Positions 5,785-25,339 of a DNA stretch of 25,634 bases are shown here, in pieces. The position numbers and the translations under genes were made by a program. The stretch is taken from assembly GCA_013297745.1 (NCBI GenBank), contig JAAFIM010000007.1, forward strand, positions 64,747 through 90,380, written 5' to 3'. Under the pieces are notes generated by a model, which did not search any database, was not told the origin of the DNA, and saw only the letters and a list, made by a program, of their open reading frames with translations. Every line of letters begins with the position of its first letter. Position 1 is the first letter of the stretch. The DNA comes from Chitinophagales bacterium. GTDB lineage: Bacteria > Bacteroidota > Bacteroidia > Chitinophagales > Saprospiraceae.

Positions 5785-6918
5785 ATGGCCAACAATAATA
5801 AACCAAAACACAATTATATTTTTTACGGAACTCGCACCAACGCCTCCGAAGTGGAGAAAATGCTCGCGCACGTGTTCCAATCTAACGAAACTGCCATATC
5901 CAAAGGGCTAAAACAAACCCCCGTTTGTATTTGGGGGAGACACGGTATAGGAAAAACCGATTTGGTGGAGAAATTTGCTATCGAAAACGGTTATAAATGG
6001 GAATATATTGCCCCTGCTCAGTTTGAAGAAATGGGCGACTTGGTGGGTATGCCTCAAGTTACGAAAGATGAAGAGGGCAACACCATCACCCGCTTTATGC
6101 CCCCGTCTTGGGTGCCTACTGAAGAAGCGAAAGGGATTTTGTTGATAGACGACGTCAATCGCGCTGATGACCGCATCTTGCGCGGGATTATGCAATTGAT
6201 ACAAAATTATGAGCTGGTGAGTTGGTCTTTACCCAAAGGCTGGCAGATTATCCTGACCGCTAACCCCGACGGCGGCGACTATTCGGTTACGCCTATGGAC
6301 GATGCGATGCTGACCCGTATGATGCACGTAACGATGGAATTTGATGTCAAAGAGTGGGCAAAATGGGCTGAGCGCAAAAATATAGACCAACGCGGTATCA
6401 ACTTTGTGCTGACTTATCCCGAAGTGGTAACGGGCGACCGCACCACCCCGCGCACATTGACCCAATTTTTCAACGCCATCGCTTCTATCAAAGATTTGGA
6501 AAAAGAGTTGGGCTTGGTGCAATTATTGGGCGATTCTTGCTTGGACACTAGCACAGTTACGGCTTTTATCAACTTTGTGAATAGCAATTTGAACAAATTG
6601 ATTGCACCTGAAGAGATTGTAAACGCTAAAGATTTCAAAGCGCAGGTTTTTGAGCCGCTCAAAACGATGGCACAGCGCGGTTCTACCCTCCGAGTGGATA
6701 TTTTGGCTACACTTTGCACCCGTTTGGTCAATTATTTGGTGGTTAATAACATCAAACCGGATAAAGAGCAGATTCAAAACATCAAATCTTTTATCAAAAT
6801 AGACTTTTTACCCAACGATATTCGCTTGGCTATGGCTCAAGATATAGTTTCTAGTAGCAATCTAAAGTTAATTATGGCAGACCCAGAAATTGGCAAATTA
6901 TTGTTGAACAGAATGTAA
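5785..6918 (+). CDS. AAA+ ATPase, AAA_5/MoxR-like subfamily
   Basis: Walker A GRHGIGKTDL. Walker B plus downstream region ILLIDDVNRADDRILRGIMQLIQNYEL resembles the MoxR/CbbQ pattern (LLxDEINRA...). Sensor-like QIILTANP. The ~180-aa C-terminal extension was not recognised. Confidence 0.6.
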   Translation: MANNNKPKHNYIFYGTRTNASEVEKMLAHVFQSNETAISKGLKQTPVCIWGRHGIGKTDLVEKFAIENGYKWEYIAPAQFEEMGDLVGMPQVTKDEEGNTITRFMPPSWVPTEEAKGILLIDDVNRADDRILRGIMQLIQNYELVSWSLPKGWQIILTANPDGGDYSVTPMDDAMLTRMMHVTMEFDVKEWAKWAERKNIDQRGINFVLTYPEVVTGDRTTPRTLTQFFNAIASIKDLEKELGLVQLLGDSCLDTSTVTAFINFVNSNLNKLIAPEEIVNAKDFKAQVFEPLKTMAQRGSTLRVDILATLCTRLVNYLVVNNIKPDKEQIQNIKSFIKIDFLPNDIRLAMAQDIVSSSNLKLIMADPEIGKLLLNRM

Positions 6919-6977
6919 ATATGGTAAAAAAAAGCCCTGTAGTTGTTTTCTTATAATTTCTAAACTTTTTTTGTTCT

Positions 6978-7748
6978 ATGCATTTAACCCATTTTGTAAA
7001 ATTAACTGCTTTAAGTTTGTTAATTGTTGCCTGTCAATCTAAAAACAACAACAATAATCCTAATCCCAGCAGCAATTCCAACGTTTCGACCGCGCCCGCG
7101 CCTACAGTAGCTGCTGCCGCCATTACGTTTAAAACGCAAAAATTTACCGCCAAAAAGAAAGAAAATACAGCAGATTACGAAGTTGATTTGGTGAATGAAA
7201 GCCACGAGTTGGGCAAATTTATCAACCAAACCATTTGCAAAACCCTCAGCGCGGATAAAATGAATTGCGATTATCAAAAATTAGCCAACGAGTACGTAAA
7301 AGGCGATAACGAGGGGTTTAGAATGGAAACTATGCAAACGGCTAAAATTGCTTTCGCGGGCAAACGGATAATTAGCATAGCCACTACTTGGTGGGAATAC
7401 GCGGGCGGCGCGCACGGGATGGGTTCAGGCGGACATATTAATATAGACGGGGTTAATCTCAAAGTTTTGGGGATAAAAGATATGGTTAAAGATATGGAGG
7501 GGCTGAAAAAATTAATCTATCCCGAACTGAAAAAAGCATACACGGCAGAAATTGGGGGCGAGTTGGATATGCCAATAAACGATGTGGGCGAATTTGACGA
7601 TATTAGCCTCGATAAAACTTCAGTTTCTTTCAATTATAGCAGTTTGGCGCAACTTCTTGGGGGCGGAAATATGGATATACAGCAAGATTTGTGGGTAAGT
7701 TTGCCCATAGCCACAGCGCAGCCATTTTTTAACCTGCCTTTGGAATAG
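6978..7748 (+). CDS. lipoprotein, probable DUF3298/DUF4163 (RsiV-like) domain protein
   Basis: Lipoprotein signal with lipobox LIVAC. Low-complexity N/S/A linker. The WWEYAGGAHGMGSGG motif resembles the conserved GGAHG of DUF3298. Confidence 0.5.
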   Translation: MHLTHFVKLTALSLLIVACQSKNNNNNPNPSSNSNVSTAPAPTVAAAAITFKTQKFTAKKKENTADYEVDLVNESHELGKFINQTICKTLSADKMNCDYQKLANEYVKGDNEGFRMETMQTAKIAFAGKRIISIATTWWEYAGGAHGMGSGGHINIDGVNLKVLGIKDMVKDMEGLKKLIYPELKKAYTAEIGGELDMPINDVGEFDDISLDKTSVSFNYSSLAQLLGGGNMDIQQDLWVSLPIATAQPFFNLPLE

Positions 7749-7881: not shown

Positions 7882-9204
7882 ATGAAAATAACTAAAATTC
7901 ATCTGCAAAACATAGGCGTTTTTGAAGATACGACTATAGAATTTCCCAGCCACCACGAGGGCGAAAATGGTACGGATATTCATATTTTTACGGGCGAAAA
8001 TGGTAGCGGGAAAAGTACGCTATTGTTGGCGTTGATAAGTAGTTTTTTGCCAAATCACTTATCCTTTAACAATAGTCAACCGCCTAATAATACAACTTTA
8101 TATTTTTTGCAGCAAAGATTAAGGGTAAGTGGTGATAAAATAATAAATAAGATAAAAACTACTTTTAGTGTTGATGATAGAGAAGAGTTGAATAGTTTTG
8201 AAGGACAGTCAAACTCTAAAACTTTTATTAATAATAACGACTTGCCAAAACTTAAGTTGTACCACAAAATAAACAGTGGGTCTAGTATTCTAGATGAAAA
8301 TTTAATGTATGCGGTCTTTATTTACTCTGGACATAGAGCGATAATTGATTATAATTTTAATCCAAATATTGAGCTACATCCATTACACAACGGCACCAAT
8401 CTAATCAAACAAACTACTGCTAAACAATTCTTTAAGTTTGTAAAAGAGCAGATAGTAAAATCGCTTTGGGCAGAAAGAAAGGGAGATGTGCAGCGCGTAG
8501 AGAGTGTAAATTTGGCACTTAACGCAGTAAAGGAATTTATAAAAGAGGTTACTAATTTAAGTGTAGAGTTTGAATTGGATGCGGATGATACGGAAAAGGT
8601 ATTGCTGTTGGTGTCTGGGCAAGTAGTAAATTACGATGCTTTGCCTGACGGGTTGCGCTCGTTGATGAGTTGGATAGCTGACTTATTATGGCGTTTGGAT
8701 AGGTGCAAGTGGGAAAATAATACGCCATTATTGGAGCGTAGAGTGTTATTGTTTTTGGATGAAATAGAAGTGCATTTACACCCAAGTTGGCAGCGTAAAG
8801 TATTGCCTGCGGTGAAAAAATTGTTTAAAAATGCTCAAGTGTTTATCTCTACGCACTCGCCTTTTGTGGTTAATTCTATAGATGGGGCTTTTGTGCATAG
8901 GATAGAATTGGAGGGAAAAAATGCCAAAGTCTTGCCCGCTGTGCAGTCGAATAATGCTACCAATATACAAACTGTGTTGAGGGAAATTTTTGGCGTTTCT
9001 GAAGAGTTTGGATTAGAAGTTAGCGAAAAGCTTAACAAATTTATTCAGATTAAAAACGACATTTTCGCTAAAAAAGAGTATGATAAACCTTATTTTTTGG
9101 AATTAGCCAAATCTTTAATAAAAGAAGGCGAAGAATTAGAGTTAATCGTTGCGTTTGAATTGCGACAATTGAGTAAAGTGCTTAAAGAAGATTTTGCGCT
9201 ATGA
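7882..9204 (+). CDS. ptuA: ABC/SMC-like ATPase (AAA_15/AAA_21 type), Septu PtuA-like
   Basis: N-terminal IHLQNIGVF...IFTGENGSGKSTLLLAL (Walker A). C-terminal LLFLDEIEVHLHP (Walker B/D-loop) and ISTHSPFVV (H-loop). Stop overlaps the start of the HNH gene (ATGA). Confidence 0.6.
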   Translation: MKITKIHLQNIGVFEDTTIEFPSHHEGENGTDIHIFTGENGSGKSTLLLALISSFLPNHLSFNNSQPPNNTTLYFLQQRLRVSGDKIINKIKTTFSVDDREELNSFEGQSNSKTFINNNDLPKLKLYHKINSGSSILDENLMYAVFIYSGHRAIIDYNFNPNIELHPLHNGTNLIKQTTAKQFFKFVKEQIVKSLWAERKGDVQRVESVNLALNAVKEFIKEVTNLSVEFELDADDTEKVLLLVSGQVVNYDALPDGLRSLMSWIADLLWRLDRCKWENNTPLLERRVLLFLDEIEVHLHPSWQRKVLPAVKKLFKNAQVFISTHSPFVVNSIDGAFVHRIELEGKNAKVLPAVQSNNATNIQTVLREIFGVSEEFGLEVSEKLNKFIQIKNDIFAKKEYDKPYFLELAKSLIKEGEELELIVAFELRQLSKVLKEDFAL

Positions 9205-9800
9205 AAAAACAAATTAGACCAGCACAACCACAATGGTTAGCCGATAATTATAAAAAATGGGCTACAGCTTGGGCAAAATTACAAAAGAAAGGGGGGACTT
9301 TTCAGTGGGCTTGGCATCCTATTCACAAAGTTGAACGAGTGAATAAAGAAATCACTAAAATACTTTTAGATGGAATGACTCAAGGGCATTGCTCATTTTG
9401 CGATGCTTTCCCGATAGAAACAACAGGCGTAACGTTGGAACATTTTAAGCCTAAAAGCAAATATCCTTTGTTGGCTTATACGTGGAATAATTTATATCCT
9501 TGTTGTAACAAATGCCAAGAGAAAGGAGATTTTTACAGTTGGTTATTAATAAATCCCGATAATCCAAGATACGATTTTTGGGATTATTTTATTTATGAAG
9601 CATCAAGCGGGATGATTTTAGTAAATGAAGCTGAAGATAAATCTCATTTAGACCGTGCGCGTGCTTTTGCAACGATTAAAATTTACGGGTTGAATGACCA
9701 CAGCCGCCCAGAAATGCGAAAAAGAATTTACAAGCAACTACTAAAAGCTGACCCTGCGGATTATAAGGACTACGCGTATCGGTTTCTAATGGATTTCTAA
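9201..9800 (+). CDS. ptuB: HNH endonuclease, Septu PtuB-like
   Basis: HNH signature HCSFCDAF...TLEHFKPKS...WNNLYPCCNKCQEKG (C..C, EH..P, N, CC.KC). Length ~199 aa. Translationally coupled to the upstream ATPase. Confidence 0.6.
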   Translation: MKKQIRPAQPQWLADNYKKWATAWAKLQKKGGTFQWAWHPIHKVERVNKEITKILLDGMTQGHCSFCDAFPIETTGVTLEHFKPKSKYPLLAYTWNNLYPCCNKCQEKGDFYSWLLINPDNPRYDFWDYFIYEASSGMILVNEAEDKSHLDRARAFATIKIYGLNDHSRPEMRKRIYKQLLKADPADYKDYAYRFLMDF

Positions 9801-11350: not shown

Positions 11351-11965
11351 CTACTTGTTGGCAGCGAATAATTCGGCTACTTTAGCCCAATTAGCTACAC
11401 TGAAGAAAGCGTTGATATAATCAGCGCGGCGGTTTTGATAGTTGAGGTAATAAGCGTGTTCCCATACATCAATACCGAAAATGGGGAAGCCGCCACAGCC
11501 TTTGCTATCTACATCCATAAGCGGATTGTCTTGATTGGGGGTAGAACAAACCTCTACTTTGCCCCCTTTATGCACACACAACCAAGCCCAACCAGAACCG
11601 AAACGGGTCATAGCAGCAGCAGCAAATTTTTCTTTGAACGCTGCAAAACCACCCAAATCGCGGTTGATAGCTTCTGCCAATTCACCTGTGGGTTCGCCGC
11701 CACCATTGGGAGACATTACTTCCCAAAATAGGTTGTGGTTGTAGAAACCGCCCCCATTGTTGCGCACTGCTGGGCTGGCTTTGGAGATATTCGCTAAAAT
11801 TTGTTCGATGGTTTGATTTTCCAACTCTGTGCCTGCTATGGCTTTATTCAAGTTGTCGGTATAAGCGGCGTGGTGTTTGCTGTGGTGAATTTCCATAGTG
11901 CGCGCATCAATATGGGGCTGTAGTGCGTCGTAAGCGTACGCCAATTTGGGAAGTACAAATGCCAT
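11351..11965 (-). CDS. sodA: Fe/Mn superoxide dismutase
   Basis: [28 protein letters not shown], metal ligands, and [19 protein letters not shown] signature. Confidence 0.93.
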
Positions 11966-12071: not shown

Positions 12072-12947
12072 TTATTCTAAAACTACATCTATTTTTTCCC
12101 GCGTAAAGCCTACCGTTGCTAAAGTATTGGCTAATAAAGCCCAAAAATCGGCTAATTCGTAAGGGAAATTTTCAATTTGGTATAAATCGCTGTAGGTATC
12201 GTTTCCATACAAATAACTATTATTGCGCCAATACATCCAACTCTTTTCAATATCTTCGTTAATAAACAAACGGTTAAAATTATATTCAAAAAACAACTCA
12301 AGCCAATCATTGTGAAGGTCAGAAGCTTTTGTTTCTGCTATTAGGTAATTTAGGGTTTCGGTGACTAATTTTTCATCTTTTGCGCCCACTTTATGGAGTA
12401 GCAAGTATAAATCTACAGAGTCTTTTATACGCGGTTGGGTTATGGATTGGTGTATTTTCCAAGATAATTGAATGGGCAAAGGGGCAGCTTTGGGGATGAT
12501 AAATTTAGCACCTTGCGCGGGTTGGTATTCTATAGTTACGGGTTCAAAAGGCACAGGCCAATTAAAGCTAATTTCTATATTTAAGGAAATTTTTTCATCC
12601 CCGATAAAGGCCTTAATTTCCGTATTGACGGTGGCAAAATGGTTATACATTGCATAATCGGAATTTTCCCAATAGATATTGTCGCTATCCAATCGCTTAA
12701 ATCGTACGCCATCTTTCAAGTCGCTGTGGCAAACAGTCATCAGCCAGATGTTGAAAATTTTTTCCGCGTCTTCCATATCCCCAAAGGTTTGGCTGCAATA
12801 CCAATCCAAATCGGCTGGTAGGCGGTTGGCAGGATTAGCACAAAATTGGCGGGTTAAAAAGCTGCCTTTGAGTACAAAAGGGCTGTTGAAACTAGCAGCG
12901 CGGGCGATAAAACCCTCATAAGCGCGCATTTCTAATTCAGAAATCAT
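12072..12947 (-). CDS. AbiEii/DUF1814-like nucleotidyltransferase (pol-beta superfamily), paralog A
   Basis: NTase motif FVLKGSFLTRQF...LPADLDWY (hG[GS]...DhD). C-terminal R-x-KDxVDLxLLL motif resembling the conserved KDLYDL of DUF1814. ~290 aa, typical size. Confidence 0.45.
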   Translation of the reverse strand: MISELEMRAYEGFIARAASFNSPFVLKGSFLTRQFCANPANRLPADLDWYCSQTFGDMEDAEKIFNIWLMTVCHSDLKDGVRFKRLDSDNIYWENSDYAMYNHFATVNTEIKAFIGDEKISLNIEISFNWPVPFEPVTIEYQPAQGAKFIIPKAAPLPIQLSWKIHQSITQPRIKDSVDLYLLLHKVGAKDEKLVTETLNYLIAETKASDLHNDWLELFFEYNFNRLFINEDIEKSWMYWRNNSYLYGNDTYSDLYQIENFPYELADFWALLANTLATVGFTREKIDVVLE

Positions 12948-13034: not shown

Positions 13035-13913
13035 TCAATCCCAATCGTCATAATTTGGTCTTGGGTCAAAACCCGCTTTTTCAAAAATTGTGGTTAAGTA
13101 TTCGTAAAAATCATCTAATTTTTCTGGAACTTGATAGCTGCCATAAAAATCTGAATAGGTGTTTGTATCCCAAAAATGCTTAAAATCATAATATTTCTCC
13201 TTGTTATCCATACGCCAATACTCCCAACGGCTCTCTGATATGACTTCGTCCTCGTCAAAGTTATATTCAAAAAACTCATCTGCAAATACGCCACTCATTA
13301 TAGCTTCTTCCTCGGCTGTTTCTTTTATTAGCGCAATCATTTCATTATCAATACTTTGATGTTGCAATAATAAAGATAAATCCACAAAATCTTTCATACG
13401 CGGTTCTATGATACACTGGTGAATTTTCCAAGCGATTTGTAAGTATAAAGGTATGGTTTTGGATAGATTAAACTGCTCGTTATTGCTATTTTTGTACAAA
13501 ATTGGTTTTGGGGTAAAATGTATTGGCCAATTATAACTAATTTCAATATAAAATCGAATAGTTTGACCTTTTACAGTAGCTTCTAATACAGTACCAATAG
13601 TGGTAAATTCTTGATAATCAGCATAATCGGTATTTTCCCAATTAATGTTGCCTGCTACTAGCGGATTAAATTCTACCCCGTCGTTTAGTTTGGTATTGAC
13701 TACAGTCATTAGCCAAATGTTAAAAAAAATCATAGCATTATCCACCATACTTAGTTTTTGCAAACAATACCAATCCAAATCTGCTGGGATTCGGTCGCTT
13801 AAGCTGGGGCAAAATTGGCGGGTCAAAAAGCTACCTTTCAATACAAAAGGGCTATCAAAGGTTGCAGCGCGCTGGATAAATGATTCGCAAGCGAGTAAAG
13901 CTAAATTATTCAT
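13035..13913 (-). CDS. AbiEii/DUF1814-like nucleotidyltransferase, paralog B
   Basis: Same motifs as paralog A (FVLKGSFLTRQF, PADLDWY, PRMKDFVDLSLLL). Collinear similarity across the full length. Confidence 0.45.
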   Translation of the reverse strand: MNNLALLACESFIQRAATFDSPFVLKGSFLTRQFCPSLSDRIPADLDWYCLQKLSMVDNAMIFFNIWLMTVVNTKLNDGVEFNPLVAGNINWENTDYADYQEFTTIGTVLEATVKGQTIRFYIEISYNWPIHFTPKPILYKNSNNEQFNLSKTIPLYLQIAWKIHQCIIEPRMKDFVDLSLLLQHQSIDNEMIALIKETAEEEAIMSGVFADEFFEYNFDEDEVISESRWEYWRMDNKEKYYDFKHFWDTNTYSDFYGSYQVPEKLDDFYEYLTTIFEKAGFDPRPNYDDWD

Positions 13914-13937: not shown

Positions 13938-14540
13938 TTATGGAATAAGCCAACCATTATCCAAATCTACGTTGCTGTCGTACAAACAAAATTCTGCTTG
14001 TTCTTTGCCAATTATCCAAGTATTTTGGGTTAATTCTGCTTTTAAGTTTGCAACTCGCTGCTCAAAATCGGCTCGATTGCCATAATGGCGCAGGGTGATA
14101 AATCGCTGACTTTCGTTGTTTTTTAGACTGTTTTTGGATAAGTGGGTTTGGTGTTCTTGGCAGATTTGGGTTAATAATTCCACCTGTTTATACTCAATTT
14201 TAGCGTGCCATTCAAAATAGTTTTTGCTGTTATTCAACTCATTTTCAAACAGATGCGCGCAGTAGGCGGGAATTTCTATCTTTATCCGATTAGGGTTAAA
14301 GTTGAGCTGTTTTAACTCCAAAGCTAATAAGTTGGCTTTATCTATAACCGTTTCCAACCCATTTTCGTAAAAAACTTTGGTCAGCATCGGCTGTTGTTGA
14401 TGTGCGCCCCGCGCCAAGTGGATAAGAATGGCTTTGCTTTGCAGGTTTTGGCAAATGGTGGCAAATTCCGTTTCGCGCTCGTTGTGGATAGCATCGACGG
14501 TCAAATGCAGTTCGAAGGGTAAATTTTCTATGTTTTTCAT
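13938..14540 (-). CDS. hypothetical protein (~200 aa from ATG 14540; the ORF-track start at 14609 runs into a terminator hairpin). First gene of an apparent three-gene unit with the two NTase paralogs.
   Basis: ORF track. Same strand, 25-nt gap to paralog B. No recognisable HTH or other motif. Confidence 0.4.
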   Translation of the reverse strand: MKNIENLPFELHLTVDAIHNERETEFATICQNLQSKAILIHLARGAHQQQPMLTKVFYENGLETVIDKANLLALELKQLNFNPNRIKIEIPAYCAHLFENELNNSKNYFEWHAKIEYKQVELLTQICQEHQTHLSKNSLKNNESQRFITLRHYGNRADFEQRVANLKAELTQNTWIIGKEQAEFCLYDSNVDLDNGWLIP

Positions 14541-14582
14541 AACGCTATTATACGATTTTTGCACAAAGATAGTTCCTTTTAT

Positions 14583-14616
14583 ACAAAAAAAACAGCTTGC
14601 TGTGGGCAAACTGTTT
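14583..14616. terminator. bidirectional rho-independent terminator downstream of argD
   Basis: AAAAAAAACAGCTTGC-tgtgg-GCAAACTGTTTT hairpin (one mismatch) flanked by A-run and T-run. Confidence 0.55.
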
Positions 14617-16987: not shown

Positions 16988-17680
16988 CTATGGATAAGTT
17001 TGGCGGCGTTGGCTTTGGCGCAATTCTACCGCTTTTTTGGCTTTGCGTAGATTGCAAAAATGAGCTTTCAAACGCTCCGTTTGCTCTTGGTGGCGAACCA
17101 TACCCACGAGGTCGGTTTGGTGCTGTTGCTCTTTCAATTCTGGGTCATACAACATAGCCGTGCAAAGGCAGTTTTTACGCCCTTTTAATTTTAAAATATC
17201 AAAATTTACACAGCTTTGGCAGCCAGCCCAAAAGGTTTCATCTTGGCTAATTTCCGAATAAGTTACGGGTTCAAACCCCAAATCGGAGTTGATTTTCATC
17301 ACAGCTAAGCCTGTAGTTAGCCCAAAAATTTTGGCTTGGGGGAATTTATTGCGGCAAAGTTCAAAGATTTTTTCTTTGATGCGTTTGGCTAAGCCATATT
17401 TGCGGAATTTTGGGGACACAATAAGCCCAGAGTTGGACACAAATTGTCCATCGCTCCAAGTTTCGGCATAGCAAAAGCCAGCCCATTCGCCAGTTTCGCA
17501 GCAAAAAGCAACAACAGCTTTGCCTGCAAGAATTTTCTCGTTGAGCATATCAGGGCTGCGGCGGGCTATACCCGTGCCGCGAGCTTGGGCAGAGGCGAAC
17601 ATTTCGTCGCAAATTTCGGCAGAGAAAGGGAAATCTTGTACGTTGGCAATACGTACAACAAAAGAGAGGTTAGTTTCCAT
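16988..17680 (-). CDS. GNAT-family N-acetyltransferase, likely the arg-operon acetyltransferase of Bacteroidetes
   Basis: GNAT acetyl-CoA binding pattern (..VSPKFRKYGLAKRI..). Position immediately upstream of argC on the same strand. Confidence 0.55.
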   Translation of the reverse strand: METNLSFVVRIANVQDFPFSAEICDEMFASAQARGTGIARRSPDMLNEKILAGKAVVAFCCETGEWAGFCYAETWSDGQFVSNSGLIVSPKFRKYGLAKRIKEKIFELCRNKFPQAKIFGLTTGLAVMKINSDLGFEPVTYSEISQDETFWAGCQSCVNFDILKLKGRKNCLCTAMLYDPELKEQQHQTDLVGMVRHQEQTERLKAHFCNLRKAKKAVELRQSQRRQTYP

Positions 17681-18166: not shown

Positions 18167-18679
18167 TTAGAATTTTTCAATCAATAATACCTCATAATCG
18201 TCAGCAGAAGGACCATAAGTCGCTGGTATGGGTATTCCCAAAATTCTTAGATAAACCCCCAATTGGGCGCGGTGATGGATGAGATGATTCATACAAAAAA
18301 CGCGAAGTACTTGCCATTTTGGGAGGCTAAAATGGGTTGTTTCGCCGTCTGTCATTTCCCAATGTTGGGTTAGGAGTGCAGGGTTGGCGTTGAGAATAGA
18401 CTGTTCAGCACTATTGCGGAGTTGGTCAAAGTAGGCGAGAAGTTCTTCAGTATTCTGGATATCGCAGCGCACAAAATGCTTGAAATCTAAGCTATCGTGT
18501 TCTATACAAGATGTCCACCAGCCCACAATTTCGGCAACGTGTACGGCTAGAGTGATTAGATTCTCGGAGTTGGGATGTGGTTTAAAACTACGTTGTCCAA
18601 AAGGCACGACAGCCAAAAAGCGGCGAGTAACGGACAATTCTTGTCTAAATTCAGCCAAAAGTTGGTTTAAATCGTTCAT
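18167..18679 (-). CDS. DinB/YfiT-like (DinB_2) metal-dependent protein
   Basis: Four-helix-bundle size (~170 aa) and His motifs (HVAEIVGWW, HLIHHRAQL) typical of DinB_2. Confidence 0.55.
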   Translation of the reverse strand: MNDLNQLLAEFRQELSVTRRFLAVVPFGQRSFKPHPNSENLITLAVHVAEIVGWWTSCIEHDSLDFKHFVRCDIQNTEELLAYFDQLRNSAEQSILNANPALLTQHWEMTDGETTHFSLPKWQVLRVFCMNHLIHHRAQLGVYLRILGIPIPATYGPSADDYEVLLIEKF

Positions 18680-18685
18680 AATGTC

Positions 18686-19360
18686 TTATTTTTTTATAAA
18701 TTTTTGGGTAAAACCTGCTAAATTTTGTGGGTTGGGGAAAATAGGAGCGGGGCGGAAATCGGCAAAGTCAACCTCGTAAGTGTCTTCTGTGAAAGTGAAT
18801 TGGCTACCATTTCCGCGCGTGCGGCTGCTGTTTTTGGGGTATAAAATGCCAATTTTTCCTGTCAAAATCTCCTGTTTTTCTACCCAACCCAAAAACGAGG
18901 CGATATAATTTTCTTGTTCGTTCTGGTGCAAGCTAATATGGAAATAACAATCGGTGAGCGAGTTGGGTTTTTGCAGTTGTCGAGCGGGGATGTTCAGCAC
19001 ATAATCAGCGCGAAAATAATCGCTTTTGCGCCGCATCGTTTTTATATCAATTTTTTTCAAAACCCCATCCACCAACAGTTCAAAATCTTTGCCAAAGTCT
19101 TGCCCGTCGTCAGCCCCAAAAGAGCGCAAAGGGCGCGGCAGTTGATAAGCATCAGCAAACACTATTTCGCCCAAAGTGCCTGTAAAACGTAGCTCTTCGG
19201 TTGCGTTTCGGTTGTTTTTGCCGTCCCAAATGTTGGGTATTTTGTGCGCAGCGAGTGAGTGATTGACCAACTCTTGGGCATATTTTACCTGTTCGTTATT
19301 GATAGGAAGTTGAAAAAAAAGTTGGGCAATTGATTTCATACTGTTGCGTTGATAATCCAA
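18686..19360 (-). CDS. hypothetical protein (224 aa) with a possible PD-(D/E)xK-like acidic motif
   Basis: ORF track. GADDGQDF...LLVDGVLKKIDIKT could be a D...(D/E)xK nuclease core; this is weak. Lies 6 nt upstream of the DinB-like gene and 9 nt downstream of the DUF1569-like gene. Confidence 0.35.
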   Translation of the reverse strand: MDYQRNSMKSIAQLFFQLPINNEQVKYAQELVNHSLAAHKIPNIWDGKNNRNATEELRFTGTLGEIVFADAYQLPRPLRSFGADDGQDFGKDFELLVDGVLKKIDIKTMRRKSDYFRADYVLNIPARQLQKPNSLTDCYFHISLHQNEQENYIASFLGWVEKQEILTGKIGILYPKNSSRTRGNGSQFTFTEDTYEVDFADFRPAPIFPNPQNLAGFTQKFIKK

Positions 19361-19369
19361 AACTAAAAT

Positions 19370-19831
19370 TTAAGCCCCAAATTGCTGCAAATGATGTTCT
19401 AAGTGTTTGTACATTAGATTATTCCACTCTGTTTTGCTCAAAATTCCAAAACCCAAGGATTCTTTTTTATCAAAAAAACTTTCGCCCATTTGTTGTGTTT
19501 TGCGGATAAAATCAATCAGCCGCGTTTTTTCCACTTCAAAATCTTTTTCTGAGCTCATCACAAACTCAGGAGCTGTGGGTGAATTTTTGGCTAGGGCTAG
19601 CGTATCATTGGTGACCGATTTTTTGACAAACCATTTGAGTATCAAGCGCATAAAAAAGTTTGGTTTTTTGTGCTTGTTTTCATAAATCATCTCATAAGTA
19701 ACGCAGCAATGCGCTAGCATTTGAGACACGTTCATTTTTCCCCATTTGGCTGGGCTGTTGGGATGGAGAGATGCAATGCGGGCGATGACAGCTTCCGATA
19801 CATTGAGGTCAAATATATTAGGTAAAGGCAT
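19370..19831 (-). CDS. DUF1569-like (DinB/YfiT superfamily) protein
   Basis: ~150 aa with the WGKMNVSQMLAHC motif that I associate with DUF1569. Confidence 0.4.
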   Translation of the reverse strand: MPLPNIFDLNVSEAVIARIASLHPNSPAKWGKMNVSQMLAHCCVTYEMIYENKHKKPNFFMRLILKWFVKKSVTNDTLALAKNSPTAPEFVMSSEKDFEVEKTRLIDFIRKTQQMGESFFDKKESLGFGILSKTEWNNLMYKHLEHHLQQFGA

Positions 19832-19869
19832 AATATGAATAGTTTTTTTAATTGGTTTGTATGTGTTGA

Positions 19870-19977
19870 AAATAATCCTTTATTTGTTCCAAATCAGAAC
19901 GGTCAGCGATAAGCCGAGAAATCGGCCAACGCTGGTTATTGACATATAAATTATACCCATCAAAGCGAATTTGTTGG
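19870..19977. repeat. 108-bp direct repeat, copy 1. It is an orphan duplicate of the 3' end of the PH-domain protein gene. The final 18 nt also encode the C-terminus and stop of the HEPN-like gene.
   Basis: Identical to 23024-23131 except one substitution (agcGataag vs agcAataag), plus a 1-nt A-run difference at the 5' edge. Confidence 0.85.
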
Positions 19978-20715
19978 AATTAGGTAGTTTTCATTATCAA
20001 TGTAAGTTTTTATCTGATTGAGAAACTCGCCAACATAAGCAAAAATTTCTTTTTTTGCCGTTAAAATATCTTGGCTGGTATCTTGAGCGGCGCATTCTAC
20101 AAAGCTAATTCTTCCGTGCGCTAAATTGTTTCTATTGTCTTTTATTGTGGTAAGAAATTTATTAGCACTTCTATAATTTTCGTTGAAGGGCGGTATTGCA
20201 AATCCATAACATTCTGCACAATGTTTAATTGTTTTAGCGTCAATGTTTCCTGCGGGCTGAAACTCAGATAATTTTATAGCTCTTTTGGCTGTAAAAACAG
20301 AAAGAAAGGTTTGGAAAATATAATTTTCTCTTGCTGTTATTGCTGCTTTCATAATAGCGTCTATTTGCTCTTTTCTCCAAAGTTTCTGCAAAGCTTCGTT
20401 CAAATTGTCTAGGAGATTGTTTTCTTCATTTGGTAGATTACCCACAGTTTCGATAATGTGAGATATTCCTTTGCGAACAAATTTTTCTACCATAGCATAA
20501 AGCAGAAGATAAGAATTTGATAATAATATCTGCCTTAATTCTGGTGGATTGTGGTAGTTCTTTTGTTGCTTTGCTTTTTTGGAGAGTTTTACATTGAGTA
20601 ATTTATGGGTTGGAAACCTTCTCTTTTTTTCAATTTTTTCAAATTTATGCACAAAAGAAAAATAAATATCCAGTTCATTTTTTTCAGCTTCAAAAGCTTC
20701 AAGAATTTCATCCAT
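19960..20715 (-). CDS. HEPN-motif protein (Rx4H), possibly a MAE_28990-like HEPN nuclease
   Basis: R-NNLA-H in TIKDNRNNLAHGRISF fits the HEPN Rx4-6H motif. ~250 aa alpha-helical composition. Confidence 0.4.
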   Translation of the reverse strand: MDEILEAFEAEKNELDIYFSFVHKFEKIEKKRRFPTHKLLNVKLSKKAKQQKNYHNPPELRQILLSNSYLLLYAMVEKFVRKGISHIIETVGNLPNEENNLLDNLNEALQKLWRKEQIDAIMKAAITARENYIFQTFLSVFTAKRAIKLSEFQPAGNIDAKTIKHCAECYGFAIPPFNENYRSANKFLTTIKDNRNNLAHGRISFVECAAQDTSQDILTAKKEIFAYVGEFLNQIKTYIDNENYLIPTNSL

Positions 20716-20723
20716 ATTTTGCT

Positions 20724-21941
20724 TTAAAAAAGTTGTGGATTATTATTTTGTGGTTTGTCTAAATTCTGAAAAATAAATGTTTTAGGGTCTCCACCCAATA
20801 GGCAATGTTTCGTAAAATCAACCCTTTCCTTTAGCCTGCCTGGGTTGTTGCTGCTGTCAGAAGTTGTTACTTTTTTAAATTCTTCGGAATTTAGCCACTC
20901 TACATTAGTAACTGTTAGATTTGGATTTTCCAAAAGCGCGAAATGCACACCTAAAGCGATAGCTTCAAATCTTACCCTTGGCACAGAATTAGCCGTACTT
21001 GTTTTTCTAAAGCCTAAAGGGAAGTAGCTTTTGACAAAATTTAGTGCATCAGTAAAGTACTTTTCCAACGTCTCTTTGTTCCATCCGTTTATTGAGCCGT
21101 CATTATTTGTTTTTTGTGATAAGTACTCATCTAGAAAAGGTTTACCCCGTTTTGGATTATCTGTGCCTTTTTCTGTATAAGCAAAAAACCTAAGTAAAAG
21201 TTCTGTAGCTTCGCCTTGTTTTTGGTTATGTGGACTAATGGGGCAAAGTTGTAGAAATAAATTATTTTTACTCATAGTCTCAATAAAGCTAAAAAAACCT
21301 TCGTGTGCATCTATACCTTTACGAATTTGACTATCTGACAGTTTTTTGCCAGAGGTATTAAGTCGGTCAAAAATATCTTTCCTAATTTCAATAGTTGCAG
21401 ATTCGTTTATACTGTGCATCCGCATAGGGCGAGCTATGAAGTTATTTCGACGAGGTTTGGATAAATCGCTAAAACTAATGCCATTTAACGACGTAATTTT
21501 TTTTAAGTTTTGTAACTTAATTTCGTCATTGACAAACATTCTTAAAGCTCTAATACGTTGAGAACCATCAATTATTTCAAGTAATCCGTCTTCTTCAAGT
21601 TGCGCTACAAAAATAGGCTGCACGGGCATACCCAAAAATAAAGATTCTACAAATCGAGATATTTCGTCGGTATTCCAAACAAATTCACGTTGATATTGCG
21701 GGATGAATAAGCATAGTGTGCCTTTTTCATCGTTTTCATCATCTATATCAATTGCAGCAGTTTCATTAAATTCAAGTTGTTCGTGCAGTTTTTCGCCTTT
21801 TGTATAGAGTTTTACCAACTCGTATATGGTAAAATCAAAGGTATTATATTTATAAGGAATGGAAAAAGATTTAATTTCATTTTCAATTTCCAATTGCTTC
21901 TCTTTATCAAGAGGGATATGTATTTTGGTTTGTTTGTTCAT
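20724..21941 (-). CDS. DUF262 (ParB/Srx-fold, GmrS-like N-terminal domain) protein; no DUF1524/HNH C-terminal domain recognised
   Basis: Signature motifs IPQYQREFVW and IIDGSQRIRAL (DUF262 consensus IPxYQRxYxW ... DGQQR). Confidence 0.6.
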   Translation of the reverse strand: MNKQTKIHIPLDKEKQLEIENEIKSFSIPYKYNTFDFTIYELVKLYTKGEKLHEQLEFNETAAIDIDDENDEKGTLCLFIPQYQREFVWNTDEISRFVESLFLGMPVQPIFVAQLEEDGLLEIIDGSQRIRALRMFVNDEIKLQNLKKITSLNGISFSDLSKPRRNNFIARPMRMHSINESATIEIRKDIFDRLNTSGKKLSDSQIRKGIDAHEGFFSFIETMSKNNLFLQLCPISPHNQKQGEATELLLRFFAYTEKGTDNPKRGKPFLDEYLSQKTNNDGSINGWNKETLEKYFTDALNFVKSYFPLGFRKTSTANSVPRVRFEAIALGVHFALLENPNLTVTNVEWLNSEEFKKVTTSDSSNNPGRLKERVDFTKHCLLGGDPKTFIFQNLDKPQNNNPQLF

Positions 21942-21945
21942 AAGA

Positions 21946-22995
21946 TTAGAAGTGTTTGTTTAAATGTTGTTTGATACTTTGACCAATGACTTCGCCTAGC
22001 TTGACAGGCACAGCGTTGCCAATATGTTTTTGTAACGCTGTAGTGCTATTTGCTGTGTTTACAAAATAGTCTTCAGGAAAAGTTTGAAAAATTGCAGCCT
22101 CAAGAAGCGTTATAGCGCGGTCTTGTTCAGGGTGGCCAAATCGCCCATTACCAAAACCAATACAATGGGTTGTCATTGTGGGGGCTGGTTCATCCCATAA
22201 CATTCTACCGTAGACATCTCCAAATGTTTTGCCAGTCAATTTTTTGTGGCAATCATTTATTAACTCAGTTGGTAAATGTTTCCAACTTTGTCCTTGTTTG
22301 ATGTATTTTATGCGCAACTTATTTGTTGCAGATAGCTTTTGTGCTCTATGTAGGGGATTGTAGGGAGAGGTTACCCCGTCAGCAACGGAAGGTAGATGGC
22401 CTATAGCTGTTTTTACGGTTTGTTTATTGTTGGTATGGGTTGGGGGAATAACTTCAATTTCTCCAAATTTAGAAGCCAACAAAACTAATCTTTTTCTGCT
22501 TTGGGGTATTCCATATTCAACACAATTGATAATTTTTTCTGTATTGGAAACAAAGTAACCGTTTTTTTTAAGTGTATTTATAAAGTTTTGATAGACAGCA
22601 TATTTATCAATTTTAGCTAATTGGGGAACATTCTCCATAGAGATAATTTCAGGTTGTGTAGCCTCAATGATTTTGCCAAAATAGTTGAGTAATCCCCATT
22701 TTTCCTCTTCATTTTTATTCTTCAATCCTGATGTGTATCGGGAGAATGGTTGGCAAGGAGCGCAGCCAACTAAAATTTTTATTTTATTAGGCGAATAGAG
22801 ATTTTGAATAAATTTTGGGTCTAATGCTTTAATATCAGCATTGATAAATTTTGCCTTATGATTTTTTTCATAAGCCACTTGGCACGTTTTATCGCAATCA
22901 ATACCAGCGATAACCTCAAAGCCTTGCTTCTGTAGCCCAAACGATAAGCCTCCAACCCCACAAAATAAATCTACAACTTCAACTTCCATAGACAA
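21946..22995 (-). CDS. dcm: C5-cytosine-specific DNA methyltransferase
   Basis: Motif I DLFCGVGG, motif IV GCAPCQPFS, motif VI SMENVPQL, motif VIII GIPQSRKRLVLLA. Confidence 0.85.
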   Translation of the reverse strand: MSMEVEVVDLFCGVGGLSFGLQKQGFEVIAGIDCDKTCQVAYEKNHKAKFINADIKALDPKFIQNLYSPNKIKILVGCAPCQPFSRYTSGLKNKNEEEKWGLLNYFGKIIEATQPEIISMENVPQLAKIDKYAVYQNFINTLKKNGYFVSNTEKIINCVEYGIPQSRKRLVLLASKFGEIEVIPPTHTNNKQTVKTAIGHLPSVADGVTSPYNPLHRAQKLSATNKLRIKYIKQGQSWKHLPTELINDCHKKLTGKTFGDVYGRMLWDEPAPTMTTHCIGFGNGRFGHPEQDRAITLLEAAIFQTFPEDYFVNTANSTTALQKHIGNAVPVKLGEVIGQSIKQHLNKHF

Positions 22996-23001
22996 AGTAT
23001 T

Positions 23002-23373
23002 TTAATTATTATCCAATTGTTCGAAATAATCCTTTATTTGTTCCAAATCAGAACGGTCAGCAATAAGCCGAGAAATCGGCCAACGCTGGTTATTGACATA
23101 TAAATTATACCCATCAAAGCGAATTTGTTGGGGCAAATAAGTGGTTTTGCGCAGGGTCATACCCAACCCGTTGCGAAGTTCTAATTCTGTCTTAGTAACG
23201 ATTAAAATAGGATTTTTGAAGAAACAAAGCCCTAAAATCAACAGCACAAAGCCCATAAATAGTTCTAACATTTCCCACAACCAAAAGCCCATTACCAGCG
23301 ATAAAACGCTGATAATGAGCATAGAAATAGACCAAATTCTGTTGTGGCGTACAGCAAAAGGGAAGTTAAGCAT
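23002..23373 (-). CDS. small membrane protein with bacterial PH-like (bPH_2/YdbT-like) domain. Its start overlaps the ftsZ stop by 1 nt (TAATG).
   Basis: Two N-terminal hydrophobic helices followed by a ~70-aa soluble domain. The 3' end is duplicated at 19870-19977. Confidence 0.45.
   Translation of the reverse strand: MLNFPFAVRHNRIWSISMLIISVLSLVMGFWLWEMLELFMGFVLLILGLCFFKNPILIVTKTELELRNGLGMTLRKTTYLPQQIRFDGYNLYVNNQRWPISRLIADRSDLEQIKDYFEQLDNN
23024..23131. repeat. 108-bp direct repeat, copy 2 (inside the 3' end of the PH-domain protein gene)
   Basis: See copy 1. Confidence 0.85.
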
Positions 23374-24830
23374 TAGTCTATATTATCGTGTAAAAAAGAA
23401 TTGTTGTCGCGTAGCTCGGGCTCATTATCGTCGTTGATGGTCAGTCTGGACAAATTGGGTTCGGACGAGTTGGGCAAATCTTCTAATTTTATCCCTTTGC
23501 GCAAAAATGCGGGTTTATTTTCCAACTCATTTACTGCTTCTGGGCTGTTGAGTTTTACGCTCAAATTTTTAAGCCTTTCGCGGCGTTCGTCTGCGGATTC
23601 TATTTTTTTGTGGGTAGAATTATCCTTGGCAGGCGGTATATTTTGTTTGAAAGGCTCTTTTTCTTTTCTAACGGGTTCGATAGGCTCTATAGAGTATCTA
23701 GTTTCTTTTTTTTTAAAATCGTCGTCTTCCAAATAATAAGATTTTTTGCCGCTATTTTGAGGTTTGTCATCATCATCATCTAGCGCAATGCGGGTTTTAT
23801 TATTGGTGGTTGTTTGTATAGGGTTGACTTTTTGGGGAGTTTGGTTGGTATTGGGGCGGGCTTGTTCTTTGCCTTTGCCTGTTTCGAATCCTGTAGCGAT
23901 AACAGTAACTGTCAATTTTTCGCCAAGAGATTCATCGTAGCAGTTACCCCAAATCAAATCCGTGCCATAACCAGCCGCTTCTTGTACAAATTCGGTGATT
24001 TCAAACACTTCATCCATCGTCACTTCTTGAGTACCCGAAGTGATATTCAATAGTATGTGCTGAGCGCCTTTGATGTCGTTGTCTTCCAATAATGGAGATT
24101 GCAAAGCCGCTTCTACCGCTCTTCGCGCGCGTCCTTCGCCTGACATAGAAGCCGTGCCCATAACCGCAACCCCAGAGTCGCGCATAACGGTGTTGACGTC
24201 CTCAAAATCCACGTTTACATAGCCAGGAACGGTGATAATTTCCGCTATACCTTTGGCTGCTGTGGTTAATATATCGTCTGCTTTGGCGAAAGCTTCTCCC
24301 AAAGACAAATTGCCGTATATTTTCCGCAATTTATCATTAGAGATAACGATAAGTGTATCCACATTTTTTTTCAATTCAGCTATCCCTTCTTCAGCCTGTT
24401 TCATACGGCGACGACCTTCAAAGGTAAAAGGGGTCGTAACGATGCCTACAGTCAAAATATCCATTTCTCGAGCTGCTTTGGCTATCACTGGAGCCGCGCC
24501 CGTGCCTGTACCCCCGCCCATACCTGCGGTTACGAACAACATTTTGGTGGTGGCGAAGTACTGTTTGATGTCTTCAATGGACTCAATACAAGCCTCTTTT
24601 CCTACTATAGGTTTGGAGCCTGCGCCTCGCCCTTCGGTGAGTTCTGGCCCCAACTGAATTTTGTGCGGAACTGTGCTAATGTTCATCGCTTGATTATCTG
24701 TGTTGCAGATGGCAAAATCTACCCCTATTATCCCTTGTTGGAACATATAAGATACAGCATTGCTACCGCCGCCACCTACGCCGATAACTTTGATTATAGT
24801 TTGCGAGTCGTCTGGTATATTGAAGTGCAT
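23373..24830 (-). CDS. ftsZ: cell division protein FtsZ
   Basis: Tubulin signature GVGGGGSNAV, T7 loop NVDFEDV, long disordered C-terminal tail with acidic run. 485 aa. Confidence 0.93.
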   Translation of the reverse strand: MHFNIPDDSQTIIKVIGVGGGGSNAVSYMFQQGIIGVDFAICNTDNQAMNISTVPHKIQLGPELTEGRGAGSKPIVGKEACIESIEDIKQYFATTKMLFVTAGMGGGTGTGAAPVIAKAAREMDILTVGIVTTPFTFEGRRRMKQAEEGIAELKKNVDTLIVISNDKLRKIYGNLSLGEAFAKADDILTTAAKGIAEIITVPGYVNVDFEDVNTVMRDSGVAVMGTASMSGEGRARRAVEAALQSPLLEDNDIKGAQHILLNITSGTQEVTMDEVFEITEFVQEAAGYGTDLIWGNCYDESLGEKLTVTVIATGFETGKGKEQARPNTNQTPQKVNPIQTTTNNKTRIALDDDDDKPQNSGKKSYYLEDDDFKKKETRYSIEPIEPVRKEKEPFKQNIPPAKDNSTHKKIESADERRERLKNLSVKLNSPEAVNELENKPAFLRKGIKLEDLPNSSEPNLSRLTINDDNEPELRDNNSFLHDNID

Positions 24831-24901: not shown

Positions 24902-25339
24902 TTATTCTTCCCATTTTTGGAATTCATAATATGTTTTTTGCATGTTGCTACTATCCAAAAAATGATAGCGAAGCGTATTTTTGCTTAATTTATCCAAATG
25001 GAAAGCAACCCCATTGCGCTCAAAAAAATCATTATCTGCGCTAAATCGGTATTGAAAGTTGTTGGTATAAACCAACTCTTTGTTTGTATTGTATTGATTT
25101 TCAACCCCTTCGCAAAAACTAACAGAGTCTAAATCGCAACTTTCAAACTGCCAACGCCATTCGCCATCGCGGAAAAAATGCGCCTGAACCAAATCGCCAG
25201 CTTCGTCTTCTGTGCTGATGTGGTTGAGTTGCCAACTGCCTGCTATTTTGGATAAATTTTGTTCTGTTTGCCAATGCTCGTATTTGCGGCAACTGCTCAG
25301 GGCTAAGAAAAGGGTTAGTAGAAAAAATGTAGTTTTCAT
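24902..25339 (-). CDS. hypothetical lipoprotein (145 aa)
   Basis: Signal peptide with lipobox LSSC. No other motifs. Confidence 0.45.
   Translation of the reverse strand: MKTTFFLLTLFLALSSCRKYEHWQTEQNLSKIAGSWQLNHISTEDEAGDLVQAHFFRDGEWRWQFESCDLDSVSFCEGVENQYNTNKELVYTNNFQYRFSADNDFFERNGVAFHLDKLSKNTLRYHFLDSSNMQKTYYEFQKWEE

Follow-up and report, generated by a model that had tools for sequence, protein, structure and literature searches.

A three-gene cassette encoding a C5 methyltransferase, a DUF262 protein and a HEPN protein, inserted behind ftsZ in a Chitinophagales bacterium: a putative defence module

We analysed a 25,634-nt stretch of DNA from the Chitinophagales bacterium GCA_013297745.1 (contig JAAFIM010000007.1, positions 64,747-90,380 of the forward strand; hereafter the window), in which a cassette of three genes lies just behind the cell-division gene ftsZ. 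All of the genes at this locus are on the minus strand. As read from the list of open reading frames (ORFs) and a Pfam scan, ftsZ (23373-24830) is followed by a gene for a small membrane protein of 123 amino acids (aa; 23002-23373), whose start overlaps the ftsZ stop, and then by the genes of a C5 cytosine DNA methyltransferase (21946-22995), a stand-alone protein of the DUF262 (ParB/Srx-like NTPase) type whose C-terminal domain is helical (20724-21941), and a MAE_28990-family HEPN protein (19960-20715). The spacing among the three cassette genes is only 4-8 nt, which bears out the tightly packed, same-strand arrangement described in a first-pass annotation of the window, and 6 nt separate the small-gene stop from the methyltransferase start. 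The methyltransferase start is probably the ATG at 22989. A scan for promoters and terminators inside the cassette gave no signal above shuffled background. Beyond the cassette lie a DUF1569 gene (19370-19831; PF07606, 2.7e-10), which natively follows the small gene, and the gene of a 224-aa protein belonging to no family in the Pfam scan (18686-19360).

Pfam profile searches recovered, for each of the three products, the family that the first-pass annotation had assigned to it. The methyltransferase matched PF00145 (2.8e-63), TIGR00675 (dcm, 3e-45) and the PADLOC model MTase_II (3.7e-92), and has all of its catalytic motifs (FCGVGG at residue 11, PCQ at 80, ENV at 121, QSRKR at 165 and GNAV at 326), with the catalytic Cys81 within the PCQ motif. 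The DUF262 protein (PF03235, 4.2e-26) carries the motifs QREFVW at 84, DGSQR at 125 and FDRLN at 191, and matches the PADLOC model NsnA over both domains (9e-45; residues 80-360 against profile positions 68-359 of 385), more weakly PD-T4-2_A (4.8e-23), and weakly REase_II (PDLC03418; 1e-6, or 6e-12 for the homologue on an E. coli plasmid). Its AlphaFold2 model (predicted local distance difference test, pLDDT, 84) is closest to BrxU, SspE, ParB-N, PadC and the DUF262-domain chain of a DndBCDE-DndI entry, and neither Pfam nor the fold search revealed a DUF1524/HNH, PD-(D/E)XK or other nuclease domain in it. The HEPN protein matched PF18737 along virtually the whole profile (6.4e-20; 72.7 bits against a cut-off of 26.8; positions 3-211 of 211) and also passed PF18735 (5e-9; 36.8 bits against 28.4). 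Its Rx4H motif, RNNLAH at residues 195-200, is intact (R195 codon 20131-20133, H200 codon 20116-20118), and across 10 HEPN partners of DUF262 genes R195, N196, H200 and G201 of the RNxLAHG motif are invariant and a GNxD motif is shared. Neither the DUF262 protein nor the HEPN profile found a match in sequence searches of the PDB, and NCBIfam has no model for either protein. A PADLOC run, which the first-pass annotation had suggested, thus recognised the DUF262 protein as NsnA-like and the methyltransferase as MTase_II, but supplied no model for the HEPN protein.

The cassette is bracketed by two direct repeats of 108 nt with a single mismatch (19908/23062), just as the first-pass annotation reported, and a match of 107/108 within 25.6 kb is far beyond chance. 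One copy (R1, 23024-23131, minus strand) lies within the intact 123-aa gene; the other (R2, 19870-19977, minus strand) is an orphan, the displaced 3' part of the native small gene, and is followed by the native tail and stop (QHIQTN*, 19846-19869). A weaker similarity continues over another 24 nt (132 nt, 92%), this extension being the last codons and stop of the small gene (DYFQHIQTN* in the orphan and DYFEQLDNN* in the intact gene), and despite its different tail the orphan keeps the frame through to a stop at the equivalent position. The left boundary of the inserted DNA is the point where the two small-gene alleles cease to be alike. The last 22 nt of the small gene (23002-23023, tail EQLDNN*) have the same tail type as in L001, a cassette-bearing relative (NYFEQLNNN*), which also shares the 6-nt spacer ahead of the methyltransferase, and this 22-nt tail arrived together with the cassette. 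On the right the HEPN ORF reaches 18 nt into the orphan repeat in another frame, and its last five codons (PTNSL) and stop are therefore repeat-derived; relative to L001, where the protein ends ...NYLKQC*, the gene has lost its own final 3 codons and stop and has gained 6 codons (IPTNSL) and a stop in their place, 5 of these codons and the stop being read from the repeat. At this right-hand junction (19978-19991) the HEPN 3' end (AAAACTACCTAA) overlies an imperfect match to small-gene sequence just upstream of the repeat (AAAACCACTTAT).

A contig of the same species without the cassette was found in metagenome data (L102; JGI 3300083026), where ftsZ, the small gene, DUF1569 and a 217-aa gene follow one another and the 108-nt sequence occurs once, which is the empty site that the first-pass annotation had named as the arrangement to look for. 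The flanks of L102 and of the window are 99.6-100% identical: 3/829 nt differ on the left (23852-23024) and 0/272 nt on the right (19977-19706), R2 is identical to L102 at 108/108 positions and R1 at all but 23062, and divergence begins exactly at 23023. Its small protein (P0124) is 95% identical to that of the window and ends in QHIQTN, exactly the orphan tail. The window is therefore L102 plus 3046 nt (19978-23023, absent from L102 by blastn and alignment) plus a second 108-nt copy, and because L102 is an empty site with near-identical flanks the cassette is a 3046-nt strain-level insertion, in agreement with the earlier proposal of an insertion that left the native small-gene 3' end behind as an orphan. 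Along the minus strand the inserted segment comprises the new small-gene 3' tail and then the methyltransferase, DUF262 and HEPN genes.

How this segment was delivered is constrained by its ends. No integrase or transposase domain was detected in any scanned ORF of the window (the scan took in nearly every ORF of 90 aa or more), and the junctions fit recombination, both as the first-pass annotation had supposed. A transposon target-site duplication was rejected, 108 nt being far too long and terminal inverted repeats being absent. An integrase-mediated island, in which direct repeats duplicate the 3' end of a target gene, does find here the repeats and, in L102, the empty site; it was nevertheless rejected, since the insert consists of three genes, the window contains no recombinase domain, and the right junction, which cuts the HEPN coding sequence at a microhomology, is unlike an att site.

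Comparison with other relatives shows that the cassette occupies a variable slot just behind the ftsZ/small-gene pair. In L003 the small gene is followed directly by a 216-aa gene, with neither cassette nor DUF1569; in L001 the order is small gene, methyltransferase, DUF262, HEPN and a 214-aa gene, with neither duplication nor DUF1569; and in L097-L100 it is small gene, PRiA4_ORF3, DUF1569 and DUF2306, so that DUF1569 stands directly behind the small gene in L102 and one gene further along in L097-L100. The 108-nt sequence is single-copy in L001, L003, L097-L101 and L102, which led us to reject a generic intergenic repeat, and because L001 carries the cassette at the same site without the duplication, the repeat is not a property of the cassette and is instead the scar of one particular event. 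The constant right flank of the slot is a protein of 214-224 aa (window 18686-19360, minus strand; L001 10735-11379; L003 354-1004; L102 1360-2013), for which Pfam, NCBIfam and PADLOC gave no match. Each allele has its own version of the first ~6-30 residues, the 5' end having been rewritten by each insertion, and the sequence of the protein contains a D...IDIK pattern, read by eye only, that recalls PD-(D/E)XK nucleases.

Measured against L001, ftsZ, the small gene and the 224-aa gene of the window show a synonymous divergence (dS) of 0.64-0.74, compared with about 0.33 for DUF262 and HEPN and 0.08 for the methyltransferase. The low dS of the cassette, and of the methyltransferase above all, thus means that its exchange between the two lineages is more recent than the divergence of their core genes. 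Nucleotide identity runs parallel, at 97-100% in the methyltransferase region (21946-22995 against L001 7742-8764) versus 78-95% in the flanks, and together with the lower guanine-plus-cytosine content of the insert (34.3% against 38.5% for the window) these contrasts suggest horizontal exchange. The ratio of non-synonymous to synonymous divergence is about 0.22 for DUF262 and HEPN, 0.05-0.11 for core genes and 0.045 for the methyltransferase. By these sequence comparisons the cassette is a mosaic whose recombination breakpoint lies close to the boundary between the methyltransferase and DUF262 genes. Two hypervariable patches also stand out against L001: 21667-21966, which spans the N-terminal ~90 residues of the DUF262 protein (49-88% nucleotide identity, with indels) and including an acidic insertion of ~28 residues missing from most homologues, and 20167-20266, covering HEPN residues ~150-183 (69%). 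Both could be contact surfaces under diversifying pressure.

To determine how far the three genes travel together we inspected seven independent genomes (L001, Hymenobacter, Prevotella bivia, Capnocytophaga, an Ignavibacteriae metagenome-assembled genome (MAG) and two metagenome contigs), in which the housekeeping flanks differ in each case; all seven have methyltransferase, DUF262 and HEPN in this order, the genes overlapping or nearly abutting. In IMG/VR we found 43 loci, which fall into 33 clusters; 23 of these clusters form a close subfamily, and in 22 of the 23 HEPN lies directly downstream of DUF262. A C5 methyltransferase is likewise adjacent in 22/23 (upstream in 15, convergent in 4, downstream in 3), and more distant IMG/VR DUF262 proteins occur without either partner. 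By these gene neighbourhoods the trio behaves as a conserved unit, and the corresponding expectation of the first-pass annotation held. Of its members, the DUF262 protein has about 2000 homologues, mostly stand-alone proteins of about 350-370 aa, and the HEPN family comprises 684 representatives of 50%-identity clusters, the nearest outside the species being 36% identical; it is visible only by full HMMER search, as a word-indexed search returned the HEPN protein itself and one 89% relative only.

The module is widespread, extending from Bacteroidota to enterobacterial plasmids and many viral contigs. Among the enterobacterial plasmids, an IncF plasmid of E. coli has the DUF262-HEPN pair but no methyltransferase, and in Klebsiella a convergent methyltransferase accompanies the pair. 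In the P2-like coliphage Peduovirus P2_4B2 (L103; NC_049387.1, 29078-31979) the pair (DUF262 gp44, 43% identical to the window protein, and HEPN_MAE_28990 gp43, 33% identical) is accompanied by a convergent C5 methyltransferase, gp41, which at 234 aa is truncated and covers the N-terminal half of the Pfam model only. This pair adjoins replication gene A, a region which we take to be a P2 defence hotspot, and PADLOC names neither gp43 nor the DUF262-HEPN pair. In Prevotella bivia (L085/L087 versus L086/L088) the trio lies downstream of a second block resembling a restriction-modification (R-M) system, composed of an 851-aa methylase with Eco57I-type domains and a 397-aa ORF, and is followed in some strains by a tyrosine integrase and further defence genes and in others by housekeeping genes; because the downstream content differs among strains, the trio there marks the edge of a variable island.

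The first-pass annotation held that this trio is not a named system, and our literature searches on DUF262, HEPN and methyltransferase found no named trio; the novelty that this implied did not stand, since the class is already catalogued, the DUF262-HEPN pairing is that of the validated PD-T4-2, and the DUF262 protein is NsnA-like in PADLOC. Operons of MAE_28990-family HEPN genes with a ParB-like gene and a DNA methylase gene were tabulated by Anantharaman, Makarova, Burroughs, Koonin and Aravind in 2013 (Table 1; PMC3710099), the only paper that we found on MAE_28990 or PF18737. Judged by its sequence features the cassette belongs to this class and the trio is not new: all three features that we tested are present, namely a PF18737 HEPN domain, the conserved Rx4H (Rx4-6H in the class), and a same-strand operon with ParB-fold and methylase genes. 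The 2013 class is an unnamed entry in a computational survey of gene neighbourhoods, and what is seen here is an NsnA-like DUF262 partner with a helical domain and a methylase of the C5 type. The nearest validated relative is a pair, PD-T4-2 of E. coli ECOR65 (Vassallo et al. 2022), which consists of DUF262 and HEPN(PF18735) and confers protection against T4 in its native strain and after transfer alike (PMC9519451, PMC10952713). The cassette shares this pairing and has a HEPN protein that passes the PF18735 cut-off; its DUF262 protein matches PD-T4-2_A but scores higher on NsnA, and PD-T4-2 as described has no methyltransferase. Strict membership was rejected on account of the extra methyltransferase and of a HEPN protein that has no PD-T4-2_B match and shares only PF18735.

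NsnA of Menshen (Millman 2022; Li et al. 2025) has the same architecture as the cassette protein, a ParB-DUF262 domain joined to a DNA-binding 'ParBDB' domain, and the same proposed sensor role (PMC12065111). Menshen, however, couples it to the ABC-ATPase NsnB and the inPIN-nuclease effector NsnC, whereas the cassette has a HEPN effector and includes a methyltransferase in the unit; Menshen was rejected because the neighbours are a C5 methyltransferase and HEPN, with no adjacent NsnB or NsnC, the sole ABC-type ATPase of the window being the PtuA of a Septu system about 11 kb away. GmrSD, BrxU and SspE share the DUF262 NTPase domain with its DGxQR motif (DGSQR at 125) but are DUF262-DUF1524 proteins that target modified DNA, whereas the cassette lacks the DUF1524 His-Me nuclease and has a separate RNase-type protein as effector; with no fused or partnered DUF1524, a GmrSD-type enzyme was rejected. 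Dazbog (DzbAB) has two genes, the first with DUF262, and an abortive phenotype tied to the 5-methylcytosine (m5C) state of DNA, but it is triggered by methylation and encodes no methyltransferase, and the window proteins match no Dazbog model (the only contact is a weak one, 1e-4, of a Prevotella HEPN homologue with DzbB). As for type II R-M, a cognate methyltransferase is present (PF00145), while for the endonuclease there is a weak REase_II match and no nuclease fold.

The reading that we favour, and consider rather probable as a whole, is that of a three-gene defence module composed of a C5 methyltransferase, a DUF262/ParB-like NTPase and a MAE_28990 HEPN RNase, which would have reached its present site by the following route. 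Donor DNA from a relative already bearing the small gene and the cassette would have recombined into an L102-like site. On the left a homologous crossover would have taken place at the last bases of small-gene homology, and on the right an illegitimate join would have linked the HEPN 3' end, through an imperfect microhomology of 12 nt, to a point lying 108 nt further upstream in the small gene; the stagger between the two joins would have duplicated 108 nt. The small gene would thereby have remained intact with a donor tail, and its old 3' end would have been left as an orphan before DUF1569. This single event, a homologous crossover combined with a microhomology-mediated illegitimate join, is the simplest history, and a circular intermediate integrating via a single crossover would give the same product.

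For the function of the module we draw on conserved synteny and on what is known of the families. In GmrSD, SspE and NsnA the DUF262 domain serves as a sensor driven by NTP, and it has been suggested that ParB-DUF262 proteins beside solitary methylases may target non-modified DNA (PMC12065111). The methyltransferase of the cassette would accordingly mark host DNA at its target sites, and the DUF262 protein, which resembles the sensor subunits NsnA, GmrS and SspE in its build, would bind DNA, read its modification state and hydrolyse NTP. On meeting DNA without the host mark it would license the HEPN RNase, which would cut cellular or phage RNA and stop the infection by growth arrest or abortive infection. 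The mechanism put forward in the first-pass annotation, in which self DNA would be protected by the methyltransferase and restriction or abortion would fall to DUF262 and HEPN, is a reasonable one. Conservation of the unit makes the defence assignment, as such, appear well supported. A narrower and distinctly more tentative proposal is that the trio is an R-M system with an RNase as its 'restriction' arm, in which a missing m5C mark of its own leads DUF262 to switch on HEPN and no DNA is cut. Adjacency of the C5 methyltransferase in 22/23 clusters and 7/7 genomes, and in three gene orders, argues that its link to DUF262 and HEPN is functional and not due to chance, and so tight a linkage favours the self-marking polarity.

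Several observations weigh against this overall account. No PADLOC model, PD-T4-2_B included, matches the HEPN protein at E<=10, and the methyltransferase is not obligatory for the DUF262-HEPN pair, given that neither the E. coli IncF plasmid pair nor PD-T4-2 (as described) has one. The characterised DUF262 sensors (GmrSD, BrxU and probably Dazbog) respond to modified and not to unmodified DNA, and their behaviour, together with the pairs that lack a methyltransferase, favours the opposite sensing polarity. Nor is the order of events at the locus unique, for a two-step history fits too. A cassette-bearing strain (small gene, cassette, 224-aa gene) might later have gained the small-gene 3' end and DUF1569 from a cassette-free conspecific, with homology on the side of the 224-aa gene and an illegitimate join at the HEPN end, so that the duplication would mark the arrival of DUF1569 and not that of the cassette. 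L001, with the cassette at this site and neither DUF1569 nor duplication, lends this some colour, and the same final structure and junction would be expected; but it invokes two events where one suffices, both window flanks are L102-like right up to the junctions, and the placement of DUF1569 behind the small gene, shared by L102 and the more distant L097-L100, looks ancestral, which makes this history less parsimonious and, in our estimation, unlikely. The duplication might also be an assembly artefact, in which two alleles present side by side were joined into a chimera within a MAG, since the 'tail A plus cassette' and 'tail B plus DUF1569' alleles both exist in nature and a 108-nt repeat is a typical assembler branch point. 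The join of the HEPN end to the repeat is, however, novel sequence found in neither allele, and because the independent Logan contig L002 (SRR9948925_410078, 958 nt, equivalent to window 19948-20905) reproduces it at 100% identity we consider an artefact highly improbable. L002 ends exactly 30 nt into the orphan repeat, as expected of a k=31 assembler at a repeat branch.

The functional alternatives differ chiefly in what the DUF262 protein senses or does. It might fire in a modification-dependent, type IV-like manner on foreign modified DNA (hydroxymethylcytosine (hmC), glucosyl-hmC or foreign m5C patterns) and thereby activate HEPN, the methyltransferase being functionally separate, either an orphan or epigenetic enzyme or a shield against other restriction systems. 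GmrSD and BrxU do act on modified cytosines, a phage m5C methylase sets off the abortive response of Dazbog, whose first gene has DUF262, the selection of PD-T4-2 was made on T4, a phage with glucosyl-hmC DNA, and DUF262-HEPN pairs without a methyltransferase exist; set against this are the methyltransferase adjacency described above, in close clusters, genomes and all three gene orders, and the danger that an m5C-triggered sensor would pose beside an m5C methyltransferase, and on balance we hold this polarity to be a plausible but unlikely one. It is doubtful that the trio is a classical R-M system with an add-on, in which the DUF262/ParB-like protein is itself a DNase acting on unmethylated DNA and HEPN a second-line suicide RNase. 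The partner was termed a ParB nuclease in the 2013 survey (PMC3710099), the REase_II model touches it at 1e-6 (and its E. coli plasmid homologue at 6e-12), and some ParB-fold chains in the PDB are named nucleases, but Pfam and fold searches placed no nuclease domain in it. In the characterised GmrSD-family proteins, moreover, the NTPase/sensor role falls to DUF262 and cleavage to a separate nuclease domain. Finally, methyltransferase and toxin might together form a selfish addiction unit for post-segregational killing that contributes little to phage defence. Such behaviour is known from R-M-like and HEPN toxin modules, and the cassette occurs on plasmids and phages, but the related PD-T4-2 pair gives measurable phage protection in its native strain and the position beside replication gene A of a P2-like phage, presumably a defence hotspot, fits defence cargo. 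Addiction and defence roles are not mutually exclusive, but addiction as the main purpose strikes us as improbable, and we retain the self-marking defence module as the preferred reading.

The 123-aa protein, labelled a PH-domain protein in the first-pass annotation, could not be confirmed as such: it has no Pfam match even at E=10, and its AlphaFold2 model (pLDDT 66; a transmembrane hairpin, six strands and a C-terminal helix) has PH/PTB-like structures as its top Foldseek matches, but only at E>=0.7. Protein-level searches recovered five versions of it, and a scan of genome contigs with this protein found no relative. FtsZ is at most 70% identical to that of any of 185,579 species representatives, the best being Saprospiraceae MAGs (Aureispira, Saprospira); the scan returned 80 Saprospiraceae loci (best 70%, an Aureispira MAG), none of which has the small gene, DUF1569 or the cassette near ftsZ, and the scanned set therefore holds no species-level reference. 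The Saprospiraceae lineage of the window is poorly sampled.

Elsewhere the window is defence-rich between 7.9 and 14.6 kb, where Septu and AbiE systems are found. Septu is complete, with overlapping genes (PtuA 7882-9204, plus strand, PADLOC 2e-116; PtuB 9201-9800, plus strand, 2e-48), and adjoins a region (5785-7748) that encodes an AAA_5 (dynein/McrB-like) ATPase (5785-6918, plus strand) and then a 256-aa protein with a weak PdaC match, neither of which matches a PADLOC model. The AbiE pair is on the minus strand (AbiEi 13938-14609, 6e-66; AbiEii 13035-13913, 8e-62), followed by a second AbiEii (12072-12947, minus strand, 4.5e-72) without an AbiEi of its own and by an Fe/Mn superoxide dismutase gene (11351-11965). 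Downstream of the variable slot lie the minus-strand genes of DinB (18167-18679) and a GNAT protein (16988-17680), both read from the ORF list and the Pfam scan. Within the cell-division cluster a predicted 145-aa lipoprotein (24902-25339, minus strand; weak lipocalin-like match, E 0.09) is encoded between ftsA and ftsZ; it is present in L001, and no gene was called in the 369-nt ftsA-ftsZ gap of L097.

By itself the locus is one more instance of a catalogued, unnamed three-gene neighbourhood. Yet the standard defence-finder models that we consulted do not call the trio, widespread though it is and with its DUF262-HEPN pair carried, beside a truncated methylase, by a P2-like coliphage. The locus is a worked example of how a defence cassette without mobility genes may move between relatives, through one homologous and one illegitimate crossover. 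The window and L102 are a natural cassette-plus and cassette-minus pair within one species and, if the trio is indeed an R-M system with an RNase arm, would constitute an isogenic test bed for it. If the methyltransferase does gate the RNase by way of a DNA sensor, the module would link epigenetic self-marking to abortive defence at the level of RNA.

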